A stretch of 64,000 bases of DNA from an uncultured Acidimicrobiaceae bacterium (GTDB taxonomy: Bacteria; Actinomycetota; Acidimicrobiia; Acidimicrobiales; RAAP-2). The DNA lies in contig CAWDVF010000011.1 in NCBI GenBank assembly GCA_963805665.1, forward strand, positions 393,966-457,965, given 5' to 3'. Below, one piece after another: positions 59,161-64,000 of this stretch. The notes under the pieces are model-generated. The model saw only the letters and a program-made list of their open reading frames with translations. It ran no database searches and was not told the DNA's origin. Position numbers and translations under genes: made by a program. How positions within the stretch are numbered: the first letter of the stretch is position 1; every line of letters starts with the position of its first letter.

Positions 59161-60058
59161 TCAGTGGACGATCTTGGACAGCGGGAGCTCCAAGATGTCC
59201 ATGGCCCCGTGGTCGCGCAGCGCCGGGATCAGCACGTTGATCTCCGACTTGGGCGCCACCGCCTCGAGCGCGAACGCCCCGCCGCCGGAGAGCTCCGAGA
59301 TGGTCGGCGCACGCATGGAGGGGAGGACGGCGAGGACGGCATCGAGGTTCTCCGCCGAGACGTTCAGCTTCACCAGCACCTTGCCCCGGGCCTCGAGCGT
59401 GCCTTGCAGGAGCGTGAGGATCTGCTCCATGGCGTGGCGCTTGTCCGGGTCGGCGGCCGCCTTGGGGTTGGCGATCAGCTCGGTGTGCGACACGAGCAGC
59501 GTCTCGATCACCTTGAGGCCCGCGGCGCGCAGCGCACTGCCGGTCTCGGTCATGTCGACCACCGCGTCCGCGATGTCGGGCACCTTGGCCTCGGTGGCGC
59601 CGTAGGAGAGCGCGATGTCCGCATCGATGCCGTGGGCGACCAGGGCGCGGCGCGGTCAGCTCGGGGTACTCGGTGCTCACGCGCAGGCGGCCCGGGCGAT
59701 CGGCCACCGTGGCCGCCAGCTCGGCCAGCGACGTGGCCGGTGAGTCCGCGCCGACCGCCAGCACGACACGAGCCGGGTTCGAGGTGTTCTTCGAGTAGGA
59801 GAGCTCGCCGAGCGAGACGACCTCGCTCCCCCGCTCCTCGATGCAGTCACGGCCGGTGATGCCGAGGTCGAAGAGGCCGTCGGCCACGTAGACCGGGATC
59901 TCCTGGGGCCGCAGGATGCGCACCTCGTCGACCCGGGGGTCGTCGATGCTGGCGCGGTAGGCCACGTCCGAGGCGCGGTTCACCGCGAGATCGGCGTCTT
60001 CGAACAGCTGCATGGTGGCGCGTTCGAGCGAGCCCTTGGGCAGGACGAGGCGGAGCAT
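59161..60058 (-). CDS. hisG: ATP phosphoribosyltransferase (long form); 1-2 frame switches near 59600-59650
   Basis: MLRLVLPKGSLERATMQLFEDADL...ILRPQEIPVYVADGLFDLGITGRDCIEE...RVSTEYPELT (in ORF 59078..60736), then PDIADAVVDMTETGSALRAAGLKVIETLLVSHTELIANP...GKVLVKLNV...PTISEL (ORF 59161..59583). Confidence 0.9.
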
Positions 60059-60109
60059 GGGGCTAGATCTTCGCAGACCGGCGACGGCCCTTGGGGCAAG
60101 CTGTCCCGA

Positions 60110-60506
60110 ATGCCGCCTCCCTACGACGCTTCGAACTTCCTGCAATTTGCTCGGGATCGAGCTCTCACCGGTGAACCCCGAGCAATACCCGATCGCCCGC
60201 TTGACCGTGACCCACGACCTCATCGCGGGCACGGGCTTCCTGTGGGCGCCGGTGGTCATCACGCTGGCCGACGCCTTGTGCGCGTTCGGGGTCAACCACC
60301 ACTGGCCGGAGGGCGCCAAGGGCTTCACGACCGTCGACTGCTCGGCGAACTTCATCTCGAGCGCAAAGGAAGGCGACCTCGTGATGGCCACCGCGTCGCC
60401 GCTGCACACCGGCCGCACCACGCAGGTGTGGGACGCCCGGGTCACGAACGAGACCTCCGAGCGGTTGATGGCGTCGTACCGCTGTACCCAGCTGATCCTG
60501 TACTGA
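60110..60506 (+). CDS. PaaI/4HBT-family hotdog-fold thioesterase; start unresolved (ATG 60110 plus an indel, or TTG near 60147)
   Basis: ORF 60012..60506: LLGIELSPVNPEQYPIARLTVTHDLIAGTGFLWAPVVITLADALCAFGV...GFTTVDCSANFISSAKEGDLVMATASPLHTGRTTQVWDARVTNE. Confidence 0.75.
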
Positions 60507-60557
60507 CGGCTCGCCCGAGGTCGCCGCCGCTCGCTCGGCGCAGGCCTCGGCTCAGTC

Positions 60558-61655
60558 TCAGTTGGCGGAAGGCACCGCACGCAACGCCGACTCGGTGACG
60601 AGTGCCACCTCGTCGGACACCGCTTCGGTCGAGCCGACCGGACCTGGCCCGCCCTGCAGGATGCGCGTCCGCCAGCGCTCGGAGTCGAAGCGTGCTGGAG
60701 CGGTGGTGCGCACGAACTCGGCCACGACGTGCGCAAAGCGATCGGGGTCCACGTGGTGGGGGAAGTGGCCTGCTTCGTCGAAGATCTCGAGACGGCTTCC
60801 CGGAATGGCTGCGTGGGCCAAGCGGCCGTGGCCGAGCGGGATGATGGCGTCGTGGCGTCCCCACACGATCAGCGTCGGAACGCCCTCGGCCAGATAGGCC
60901 CGGTCCAGCATCGTGATCACCTGGCCCCGCCAGTCGACGCCTGAACGGAGCGTGCGCAAGATGGCCCGGCGCGCCTCGGTGTCGGGCAGGGCGTCGAAGA
61001 CGGCCAGGATCTCCTCGGCGTCGCGTCCCAATGCGGTGTTGCAGATGTGCAGGACCAGCGCGCCGAGCCGGCTCGCGGCCCGCACGGGCGGCAGACCCAG
61101 CAGCGGCATCAACGCTTCTACGCCCGGGACCGCCGCCAGGCGGAGCAACGGGCTCACCGTTCTGCCGACGCCGCCGCTCCCAACCAACACCAGGCGTTCG
61201 CAGCGTTCGGGGAACTGGTACGCGAACTGCGCAGCGACACCGCCCCCAAGCGAATGCCCCACGACCGTGACGCGATCGACGTCGAGCACCGAGAGAAGGT
61301 CACGCATGCCGTTCGCGAAGCCGGCGATCGTGTAGTCGGCGCGCGGCTTCTCGGAGCGCCCGTGGCCGAGCAGGTCCGGCGCGATCACGGTGTGAGAGCG
61401 AGCCAACTGCTCGAACACGGGGCGCCAGGTGTCGGAGCTGTCCCCGATGCCGTGCACGAGGAGGAGCGCCGGACCGTCGCCGGTCTTGACGTACGCCCGG
61501 CGATACCCGTGGACGGTGACGTAGTGCACGCCGAACGGGCCCTCCCGTCGCAGGCCCGGCCGGAAGCGGAGCCCGGCCGGGTCCACTGCGCCAGTGGCCG
61601 CCTTGGGCGGCGCACCCTCTTGGACCGATTGGCTCCCGGGATCCGTCTCATGCAT
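60558..61655 (-). CDS. Alpha/beta-fold hydrolase
   Basis: From the ATG at 61655 inside ORF 60558..61790: ALLLVHGIGDSSDTWRPVFEQL...VTVVGHSLGGGVAAQFA (nucleophile elbow)...TLIVWGRHDAIIP...FDEAGHFPH. Confidence 0.85.
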   Translation of the reverse strand: MHETDPGSQSVQEGAPPKAATGAVDPAGLRFRPGLRREGPFGVHYVTVHGYRRAYVKTGDGPALLLVHGIGDSSDTWRPVFEQLARSHTVIAPDLLGHGRSEKPRADYTIAGFANGMRDLLSVLDVDRVTVVGHSLGGGVAAQFAYQFPERCERLVLVGSGGVGRTVSPLLRLAAVPGVEALMPLLGLPPVRAASRLGALVLHICNTALGRDAEEILAVFDALPDTEARRAILRTLRSGVDWRGQVITMLDRAYLAEGVPTLIVWGRHDAIIPLGHGRLAHAAIPGSRLEIFDEAGHFPHHVDPDRFAHVVAEFVRTTAPARFDSERWRTRILQGGPGPVGSTEAVSDEVALVTESALRAVPSAN

Positions 61656-61790
61656 GGGTGACCCTCGTCGCACGCCTTTTCCGACCGGCGGGCGGTCGCC
61701 CGCGCCCGTCACGGTACGAATCCGACGTGTCGGCCCCGTGTCACCGCTGTGAACGCTCGATGAATCGGCGTTGTCAGTCGATAACCGCAC

Positions 61791-62325
61791 CTAGGAGAGG
61801 GGGCCGCTGCGCAGCAACCGCACCATCTCGATGCCGGTGAGGGCCGCCTCGCGGCCCTTGTTGGTCTCGTCGGGCTCGGAGCGCTCGAGCGCCTGGTCGA
61901 GGGTGTCGGTCGTGAGCACGCCGAAGACCACCGGGACGCCGGTGTCGAGCTGCACACGCTGGATCCCCGACGCGCACTCCCCCGCCACGAAGTCGTAGTG
62001 GCCCGTGTCGCCGCGGATGACGGCGCCGAAGCACAGGACTGCGTCCACCTTGCCGGCGAGGGCGAAGCCGCGGGCCACCAGTGGCAACTCGAAGGCGCCC
62101 GGGGCCCACGCGACCGTGATGTCGCGGCGGTCCGTGCCGGCGTCGGCGAGCGCGTCCAGCGCGCCGTTGAGGAGGCGCAGGGTGATGCCGCCGTTGAACA
62201 GGGCGCAGGCCGACGCCCACCCGCAGGCCGGTCCCGTTGTGCTCGCCGCGGAGCGACGCGCCGACCCGGGCCGCGACGTCGTCGAAGGCTCCGTCGGGCA
62301 GGGCGATGATGTCGGAGCCGGCCAT
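61791..62325 (-). CDS. ribH: 6,7-dimethyl-8-ribityllumazine synthase; 1-2 frame switches
   Basis: N-terminus MAGSDIIALPDG... (ORF 61774..62325). Core ELPLVARGFALAGKVDAVLCFGAVIRGDTGHYDFVAGECASGIQRVQLDTGVPVVFGVLTTDTLDQALER (ORF 61791..62087). Confidence 0.88.
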
Positions 62326-62369
62326 CAGGCGGGGCGGTGTGGGGTGGTGAGGGTCACGCCCTCACTGTG

Positions 62370-62600
62370 TCACAGGACGTCGTCGAGCCCGTGCAGGAGG
62401 TGGCCCATGCGCTCGCGCTTCGTGCGCAGATAGGCGATGTTCTCGGGGTTGGCCGACGTCTGCAGCGGGACGCGCTCGGTGATGTCGAGCCCGAAGCCCT
62501 CGAGGCCGCCGTACTTGACGGGGTTGTTCGTCATGAGCCGCATGGTGGTGACGCCGAGGTCGACCAGCATCTGGGCGCCGATGCCGTACTCCCACTCCAA
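62370..62600 (-). pseudogene. ribBA: 3'-terminal remnant (~75 codons) of ribBA / GTP cyclohydrolase II
   Basis: ORF 62370..62627: ..[66 protein letters not shown] matches only the C-terminal end of RibA. Nothing RibB/RibA-like lies upstream. Similarity stops where the composition changes, near 62600. Confidence 0.75.
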
Positions 62601-62994
62601 TGCGAATTTGGACGTCAAGCTTTTCACGAAGCGTGTTCATCATGATGCAACCTCGATCCGCGATTTCCACGAGCCGTTCCAAAAGCTCGCGACTCTGGCA
62701 GTCCGCGGTGATGTACAGCTCGATTGCCGCAAACCGGGACGGCGAATCGACAATAGTGCCGATCACCTCGGTCCGGACGCTGGAAACATTCGCTTCCCGA
62801 GCCCTAATCGCAGCCAGCACGTTGCTCATGAAGCAGCCTCCCACGGCGGCAAGGAAAAGTTCTCCCCCCATCGGCCCAACATCGGCGCCACCTTTTTCGG
62901 CGGGCCTGTCGATGAGTACGCGGTGGGTGCGGAGGGTGGCTTCGGAGGTTGTCCCCGAAATCTGGTTTAGTTGAATCTTCATTTGGTTCGTCAT
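62597..62994 (-). CDS. OsmC/Ohr-family protein, lacking its own stop (ORF reads on to 62362 through the ribBA remnant)
   Basis: ORF 62362..62994: [49 protein letters not shown]...[12 protein letters not shown]...[26 protein letters not shown], carrying the two conserved Cys. Beyond about residue 133 the translation is Arg/Pro-rich out-of-frame ribA sequence. Confidence 0.7.
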
Positions 62995-62996
62995 GG

Positions 62997-63671
62997 CTAT
63001 CGTATTTCCATTACCTCGGCGAGCGTCTTCTTGGGGATTGCCGGAACCGTCGCGTCGTGACTCGGGAAGCCGACCGGAATCAGAACAAACGGCCGTTCAT
63101 TCTGCGGCCGCCCCAAAATGGTGGTCAGGAAGCCCATGGGACTCGGCGTGTGCGTGAGGGTCGCCAACCCGCTCATGTGGAGAGCGGCCAGCAGAAAGCC
63201 CGTGGCGATTCCGACCGATTCCTGCACGTAGTAGTGCTTTACTTTCCTCTCGCCCTCCAGCCCTTGTGCCAGACCGAAGTCGATGCGAAATACCACGATC
63301 AAGTAAGGCGCGACTTCGAGGAACGCCTTATGCCAGTCCGTACCCAATGGAGCTAGCGCCTCAAGCCACTCGGCAGGCATCCGGTGTGCGTAGCTCTCGC
63401 GCTCTTCAGCTTCCGCGGCTTCACGAATTCGACGCTTGATGATTGGATCTTGCACTACAATGAACCGCCAAGGCTGTTGATTCGCGCCGCTCGGCGCCGA
63501 CGACGCGCAGCGAATGGCGTTTTCGATTAATTCGGAAGGCACCGGTTCCGGCGAAAGGGAGCGGACCGAACGGCGTCCCGACATGCGGGACAGGAAGTCG
63601 CGCGAAGCCCGCATTTGTTCGTCAGCCGGCAAGCGGGGAAAGACTAGCGGAATATGCTTGTATTCTTCCAT
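62997..63671 (-). CDS. Nitroreductase-superfamily flavoenzyme, iodotyrosine-deiodinase (IYD)-like subgroup
   Basis: Intact ORF (ATG at 63671; the track starts at an upstream TTG): MSGRRSVRSLSPEPVPSELIENAIRCASSAPSGANQQPWRFIVVQDPIIKRRIREAAEAEERESYAHRMPAEWLEALAPLGTDWHKAFLEVAPYLIVVF...HYYVQESVGIATGFLLAALHMSGLATLTHTPSP...LGRPQNERPFVLIPVGFP. The subgroup call is from remembered IYD features, not a search. Confidence 0.7.
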   Translation of the reverse strand: MEEYKHIPLVFPRLPADEQMRASRDFLSRMSGRRSVRSLSPEPVPSELIENAIRCASSAPSGANQQPWRFIVVQDPIIKRRIREAAEAEERESYAHRMPAEWLEALAPLGTDWHKAFLEVAPYLIVVFRIDFGLAQGLEGERKVKHYYVQESVGIATGFLLAALHMSGLATLTHTPSPMGFLTTILGRPQNERPFVLIPVGFPSHDATVPAIPKKTLAEVMEIR

Positions 63672-63676
63672 GCCCG

Positions 63677-64000
63677 TCAATCGGTCAGGACCACGATGCT
63701 CTGCCGCCTCCGGTTCACCTGGAGGCGCGTTACGTCCGGCCGCGCATAGTGCCCGGATGGATCGAAGTTCTGCCTTTCTTCACGCACGCGCCTGTGATCG
63801 ATGGTTGCCACGAGCAGCGTCTCTACCGCGGGGGCCGGAGGAAGTACCCATTCCCCGTCCGGACCCGCGATGCACGAACCGCCATCGGCGAGGATCTCCG
63901 CGCTCGCCGACGCCACCCTCTCCCGCCACTCGGCGCCGGCGCCGATGTCCGCCCGGCGCATCAGCCCCGAGACCGACACGACGTAGGACCGCGATTCCAT
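63677..64000 (-). CDS. Nitrilase/carbon-nitrogen hydrolase, C-terminal part (5' end beyond the window)
   Basis: SRSYVVSVSGL...ADGGSCIAGPDGEWVLPPAPAVETLLVATIDHRRVREERQNFDPSGHYARPDVTRLQVN. The D..GHY.RPDV motif is typical of nitrilase C-termini. The stop lies 5 nt before the nitroreductase ATG. Confidence 0.65.
   Translation of the reverse strand: MESRSYVVSVSGLMRRADIGAGAEWRERVASASAEILADGGSCIAGPDGEWVLPPAPAVETLLVATIDHRRVREERQNFDPSGHYARPDVTRLQVNRRRQSIVVLTD

Follow-up and report, generated by a model that had tools for sequence, protein, structure and literature searches.

Close to the right-hand end of the window (the whole stretch of 64,000 nucleotides that was analysed, equivalent to C11:393966-457965) the last part of the riboflavin gene ribBA lies one base away from a gene for an OsmC-like protein, beyond which the genes of a nitroreductase-family and a nitrilase-family protein are found (Table 1). 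The genome of this uncultured Acidimicrobiaceae bacterium consists of 15 contigs with a total length of 3.76 Mb, and is 55.9% complete with a contamination score of 1.13%.

Table 1. Features on both sides of the break, with positions in the window
Feature	Position	Strand	Remarks
Host ribH (6,7-dimethyl-8-ribityllumazine synthase)	61791..62325	-	at least one frame shift near 62200
Host ribBA, 3' remnant	62370..62591	-	last 73 codons and stop; GTP cyclohydrolase II domain
Fusion ORF of 210 aa, probably artefactual	62362..62994	-	OsmC read out of frame through the ribBA remnant
Junction base	62592	n/a	C on the + strand; G in C4 and G in L090-L093, so that neither side is matched
Acidobacterial OsmC-like gene	62593..62994	-	codons 1-134 of 136; PF02566 match
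Acidobacterial nitroreductase-family gene	62997..63680	-	227 aa; PF00881 match
CN-hydrolase (nitrilase-family), 3' part	63677..64000	-	full ORF L007:1642-2703(-), 353 aa, PF00795; extends past the window
Start (1.4 kb) of the foreign tail of 23.2 kb (C11:456558-479781)	62593..64000	n/a	G+C profile to the contig end

On C11 ribBA is a fragment. In the ORF 62370-62627 on the minus strand only positions 124-165 of the 165 positions of PF00925 (GTP_cyclohydro2) were matched and PF00926 was not found on the contig, in agreement with an earlier note on this DNA, which had described the gene as reduced to its C-terminal end. The ribH gene that was said to come after this remnant is indeed there, yet it is itself broken: ORF 61791-62087 corresponds to positions 48-139 of the DMRL_synthase domain, and the N-terminal part is located in another frame (ORF 61774-62325). 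The stretch from ribH to the ribBA remnant was 77-83% identical in all 12 same-genus genomes that were sampled. Three WhiB genes are present on other contigs of the genome; among 14 control genomes this family was matched in Corynebacterium only. The host is assigned to the Actinomycetota, as a member of a WhiB-bearing lineage.

The continuation of ribBA was found on a second contig of the same bin, C4 (46.4 kb, 72% G+C). C4:1-4366 aligned with C11:452227-456556 at 91% identity, the final 251 bases being 97% identical without a gap. Past this point C4 encodes the entire bifunctional ribBA (C4:4145-5354), with several frame shifts amounting to at least four changes of frame. The claim that the rest of the gene is absent holds for C11, therefore, and not for the bin. 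The search for an intact copy elsewhere that had been proposed gave an ambiguous answer, as a second ribBA exists on C4, but in a co-binned sister lineage of ~91% identity and not demonstrably in the same genome. Of the substitutions between C4 and C11 in three genes, most fall on third codon positions (91 of 152, 14 of 18 and 6 of 7). Because of this bias C4 is regarded as a real sister lineage and not as sequencing noise; that it could be a noisy copy of the same genome was ruled out on these grounds. At its other end C4 overlaps C14:1-10529 at 88-92% identity and thus bridges C11 and C14. The latter contig begins directly in native DNA of 70% G+C that is colinear with C4, and no foreign sequence is present at its start. 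The ~31 kb of the main lineage that belong between C11 and C14 are absent from the bin, in which the sole other ribBA is the one on the sister-lineage contig. In four same-genus genomes C4 was colinear over the full 2.3 kb compared, whereas the homology of C11 was lost exactly at 456556. The usual upstream rib genes, also reported as missing, could not be confirmed even on the native contig C4: ribE was looked for near ribBA and no Lum_binding match was obtained anywhere in the genome. An rpe-like ORF, recognised by eye only, lies ~3 kb upstream of ribBA on C4.

On the other side of the break the OsmC domain was matched over positions 3-99 of 100. The family assignment is sound, and the gene as assembled has been cut short. 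In the ORF 62362-62994 on the minus strand OsmC covers residues 38-130, after which the reading continues in the wrong frame across the ribBA remnant as far as 62362, as the earlier note had described it; the same ORF was recovered. The fusion ORF owes its existence solely to the loss of the OsmC stop codon at the join. The best seven OsmC homologues are 95-98% identical and have 136 aa, and the six whose C-terminus was read end in …IRIGVPV; the protein of the window reads …IRIGV and then passes into host sequence. Its gene is without the final two codons (Pro-Val) and the stop. Of the earlier description of an OsmC protein that reaches its expected C-terminus and has no stop, only the missing stop was borne out. 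In the metagenome contigs L090-L093, where the gene is intact, its last nine bases are CCTGTCTAG.

Location of the break

The abrupt change in composition that had been noticed at about 62.6 kb is real, as a sliding G+C profile, a change-point estimate, third-codon G+C and the tetranucleotide distance agreed. Between window positions 62591 and 62593 (C11:456556/8) the G+C content drops from ~70% to ~59%. It amounted to 70.2% at 60001-62591 as opposed to 60.9% at 62593-64000, and over the whole of C11 to 69.3% on the left of the break and 58.6% in the 23,224 bases on its right. In a 200-base sliding profile G+C fractions of 0.67-0.78 were found until ~62.5 kb and of 0.56-0.62 thereafter. The third-codon G+C was 0.84, 0.97 and 0.97 in three genes on the left and 0.67 and 0.69 in two genes on the right. 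The tetranucleotide distance of the tail to the genome mean was 0.053, which exceeds the 99th percentile (0.049) of 10-kb windows from the same genome. There is no return to a higher G+C content, since the low values continue for all 23,224 bases up to the last base of C11; a small insert, as which the stretch might be taken, is not what is found. The maximum-likelihood change point has a support interval of 62343-62605 (2*deltaLnL 49.5), within which the breakpoint determined by homology falls. The shift in composition is thus abrupt and occurs at a single point, as is expected for a chimeric contig.

The position of the break was determined to one base by comparison with relatives of either side. 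Homology between C11 and C4 stops at C11:456556, i.e. window position 62591. Beyond that base C4 continues with GCGGCTGTCGACC…, by which the rest of ribBA is encoded, and C11 with CCACTCCAATGCG…. The homology of the tail to the three metagenome contigs L090-L092, which show 93.5-94.3% DNA identity to it with zero gaps, begins at C11:456558 (window position 62593). In the alignment the window tracks these metagenome relatives until …ATTGGAGTG, which is followed by one base that fits neither partner and then by GAGTACGGCATC…, identical to C4. The join is blunt. The break that had been placed near 62597 is therefore confirmed, its position being moved by 5-6 bases to the left. Around the breakpoint C4 and L090-L093 have no word in common and share nothing else. 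Both ribBA and OsmC are cut at arbitrary points by the join, and both sides are carried by one gap-free contig without any N at the join.

Gene content and affiliation of the tail

Taxonomy was assigned to each flank separately, as had been proposed. The left flank matched same-genus actinobacterial genomes and the right flank Acidobacteriota. Among the best 80 genome loci for the nitroreductase, 78 were from Acidobacteriota MAGs, mostly Bryobacterales, with 60-83% amino acid identity; the other two were from a Dictyobacter MAG and an unclassified bacterium. The top loci belonged to Bryobacterales or Bryobacteraceae and were 77-82% identical at the amino acid level. The DNA of the CN-hydrolase gene was 94% identical to that of a genome from the order Bryobacterales (G359), and the best matches of the regulators in the distal part of the tail were likewise Bryobacterales. 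The affiliation of the genes changes from one phylum to another at the same base as the composition, which again is what a chimera would show. To judge from these matches, the tail is Bryobacterales-like DNA of the Acidobacteriota.

The close metagenome relatives L090-L094 (93-94% DNA identity) have the genes in the order CN-hydrolase, nitroreductase, OsmC and HAD hydrolase, and it was only in such close contigs that the complete order was observed. The HAD hydrolase gene starts 10 bases after OsmC in the five contigs that encode a 96%-identical OsmC homologue as well as in that with the closest homologue (P0002, 98% identical), for which the gene order alone, OsmC and then HAD, was compared. 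Conservation of a four-gene operon throughout the Acidobacteriota was considered and rejected, as OsmC adjoins the nitroreductase gene in none of the best 80 genome loci and a CN-hydrolase gene is nearby in 17 of the 80. The absence of OsmC beside the nitroreductase in these 80 Acidobacteriota representatives indicates that this arrangement of the operon is confined to a narrow lineage. No exact match of the tail nitroreductase was found in public assemblies, nor was an independent assembly of that acidobacterial strain. Among ~400 genomes of the order Bryobacterales none was colinear with the whole tail and no source genome was recognised; G359 reaches its 94% over the CN-hydrolase gene only and elsewhere resembles the tail at the level of paralogues.

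Further along, the tail encodes DsbD, a tyrosine integrase, a Reg_prop protein and three sigma-54 activators (enhancer-binding proteins), as well as a TonB-type receptor (CarboxypepD_reg/Plug/OMP-barrel) that is split into three ORFs (C11:469847-473306). Two of the activator genes (C11:464496-465436 and C11:473429-474366) are 81% identical paralogues that lie ~9 kb apart, and the third activator domain forms the end of a PAS/GAF-rich protein of 1587 aa, the gene of which extends past the end of the contig. All of the strong Sigma54_activat matches of the genome, three in number, and its single Plug domain are located in the tail. The sigma-54 DNA-binding domain was not found in this genome, which is 56% complete, and in 150 genomes of the host's class nothing better than two marginal matches (19.8 bits) was obtained. 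A gene content of sigma-54 activators and an outer-membrane receptor would not fit an actinobacterium. Cargo that is able to work in its recipient, as is expected of a true island, was not recognised in the tail.

Origin of the join

The sequence at window position 62591/62593 is very probably an inter-phylum chimeric join that arose in metagenome assembly, and hence an artefact. The chimeric contig was one of the two explanations offered in the earlier note, and it is strongly supported by the switch of phylum at the same base, the intact continuations, the single junction and the unfit gene content; the other one, insertion or deletion of a horizontally acquired segment, found no support. 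An artefact is suggested in particular because this junction is the only one, because foreign DNA reaches the contig end and because intact native continuations of both sides exist elsewhere. The actinobacterial contig of ~456.6 kb would have its true end inside ribBA and should have run on through this gene towards C14. Instead it appears to have been extended by 23.2 kb from the chromosome of a co-occurring Bryobacterales-like acidobacterium, the acidobacterial piece entering nine bases before the stop of the OsmC-like gene. Probably this happened by way of a chimeric long read, or because the assembly graph was traversed wrongly at the contig end. If so, nothing would function across the join, the fusion ORF would be a by-product of the lost OsmC stop, and the riboflavin operon of the host would be intact in nature, its continuation merely missing from this contig.

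The few long contigs, the many indel-broken genes and the low marker completeness for a 3.8-Mb bin suggest that an error-prone long-read assembly is dealt with. Genes broken by indels occur on both sides of the break (ribH, the ribBA of C4 and the receptor of the tail). Inter-phylum chimeras have been documented for the long-read metagenome assemblers metaFlye, metaMDBG and hifiasm-meta (bioRxiv 10.1101/2025.04.22.649783). The C11 join resembles these in the sudden shift of G+C and gene taxonomy at one point, with two phyla on one contig, in the indel-broken genes of the assembly and in the silence of the marker contamination score (here 1.13%). It differs from them in the way it was recognised: the diagnostic in that study was 100% read clipping at the breakpoint, whereas the C11 join is known from the assembled sequence alone. 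Marker-based scores are known to miss foreign sequence that is joined within a contig (bioRxiv 10.64898/2026.10.15.759294). The de Bruijn-graph chimeras of short-read assemblies that were described in MEGAHIT MAGs (10.64898/2026.10.15.759294) are likewise interspecies joins inside a contig of a MAG that passes marker checks. These, however, are normally joined through a shared k-mer, whereas no word is shared at the C11 join and one base fits neither side. A k-mer-mediated join is unlikely because the native continuations (C4 and L090-L093) share nothing around the breakpoint. As the join is blunt and word-free, a chimeric read or a wrong graph edge would be favoured over a k-mer collision.

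Among the alternatives a true transfer between phyla has to be considered first. A double-strand break in ribBA would have been repaired by illegitimate end-joining, by which at least 23 kb of acidobacterial DNA were captured and the remainder of the rib region was replaced or displaced, and the assembly would then have broken inside the insert. Actinobacteria are known for Ku/LigD end-joining, by which foreign DNA could in principle be captured bluntly. A blunt junction with an ambiguity of 0-1 base is what such an event would leave, the genome contains other low-G+C islands, and the 5' part of the main lineage's ribBA is indeed missing from the bin, the only other copy being on the sister contig C4. 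But with one junction and foreign DNA up to the contig end a coincidental contig break inside the insert is required, and C14 starts cleanly with native DNA of 70% G+C, colinear with C4. Moreover, the tail does not show any shift towards host composition and is 93-94% identical to contigs of free-living acidobacteria, and it was not found in 60 same-genus genomes. Its cargo would be useless in the host, which would have gained sigma-54 activators without sigma-54 together with an outer-membrane receptor. The event would also have inactivated the riboflavin-biosynthesis gene ribBA, and no intact main-lineage copy of it is present in the 56%-complete bin. Such a transfer is considered improbable, and it is considered quite improbable that the junction is real and that, in a soil actinobacterium, Bryobacterales chromosome in unmodified form and at least 23 kb in length was taken up via end-joining at a ribBA break. 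If true, it would represent a very recent and large cross-phylum transfer, seen before sequence adaptation or decay of the foreign genes.

It is very improbable that the tail is a bona fide integrative element or genomic island, in which case its tyrosine integrase would have driven site-specific insertion into ribBA. The integrase in question, the sole one of the tail (Phage_integrase family, L007:6606-7772), is located ~6 kb inside and away from the edge. No tRNA gene was found in C11:456001-468000, i.e. none within 11 kb of the join, and only short repeats at chance level were found around it, a search in which flanking direct repeats are not fully assessable as there is one boundary only. 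A recombinase, a tRNA or att site, an att-like or direct repeat and a target duplication were thus not seen at the junction. Host DNA on both sides, as an island would have, was not found either, as the foreign DNA reaches the contig end and C14 starts native. A site-specific element would keep its own end. Here the terminal OsmC gene breaks off nine bases ahead of its stop codon and is without the HAD hydrolase gene, its natural neighbour, whereas in the relatives of the tail OsmC and HAD continue at precisely this point. The cargo (regulators, DsbD and a TonB-type receptor) has the appearance of ordinary acidobacterial chromosome. What speaks for an element, besides the integrase, is that real ones exist in this genome. 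A genuine-looking integrated element of ~20 kb with ~59% G+C is present at C10:19000-39000, with host DNA on both sides; at its edge are a resolvase and, on the right, a tyrosine integrase, and it further encodes a Ser/Thr protein kinase and a class-2 lipase and has a large primase/helicase-like ORF. Since such real low-G+C islands are part of the genome, a low G+C content is no proof by itself. With genomic islands and integrative elements the tail has in common a deviant G+C content and tetranucleotide composition and the presence of an integrase gene in the segment. Unlike them, and in contrast to the C10 element, the tail has a single junction, no recombinase at its edge and no tRNA or att repeats, its terminal gene is cut and its cargo appears to be incompatible with the envelope and the sigma factors of the host.

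That the join was made at binning or scaffolding and not during contig assembly is scarcely credible, for although the bin holds co-binned related lineages (C1, C3, C4 and C12, 77-92% identical to parts of large contigs), binning cannot fuse sequences and scaffolders leave gaps, whereas both sides are on one gap-free contig without an N at the join.

Other contig ends and use of the genome

With an assembly chimera as the preferred explanation, C11 should be cut at 456556 and the bases 456557-479781 should be assigned to an acidobacterium. No destroyed riboflavin pathway, OsmC-RibA fusion protein or cross-phylum island would then be left to explain. For quality control it would mean that a species-representative genome holds 23 kb of acidobacterial DNA in a 480-kb contig despite a contamination score of 1.13%. 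If the genome were mined as it stands, sigma-54 regulators, a TonB-dependent receptor, DsbD and a nitrilase-nitroreductase-OsmC operon would be attributed to an actinobacterium in error; this low-G+C operon is to be taken as acidobacterial.

Several small contigs of the bin are 77-92% identical to stretches of large ones. C4 bridges C11 and C14 as described above, C1 bridges C9 and C15, C3 resembles C2 and C12 resembles C7. Because C1, C3, C4 and C12 resemble large contigs, the bin appears to be a mixture of a main lineage and fragments of related lineages, with a contamination score of only 1.13%. The frame shifts in ribH (61774-62325), in the ribBA of C4 and in the receptor of the tail are consistent with residual indel errors throughout the assembly.

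Two other contig ends deviate in composition; in the comparison of both with genus relatives the adjoining host DNA is itself poorly conserved. One is the end of C6 (C6:255300-263030), which has 54-64% G+C as opposed to ~72%, and where homology to genus relatives is lost at about 255.3 kb. Among its products are a GstA-type glutathione transferase, the best plasmid matches of which are all from Proteobacteria (54-59% identity), a DUF4142 protein and Hsp20. This end may be a second chimeric tail. The other is the start of C2 (C2:1-13000), where the G+C content is 54-57% and the tetranucleotide profile deviates more than anywhere else in the genome. A MASE1 histidine kinase is encoded there, together with VOC/glyoxalase-, methyltransferase-, futalosine-pathway-like and HtpX-like proteins that were recognised by eye; sequence shared by C2 and genus relatives begins with a DNA-ligase gene, at 13.2-14.3 kb. 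The start of C2 could be either a real island or yet another foreign end, the third.
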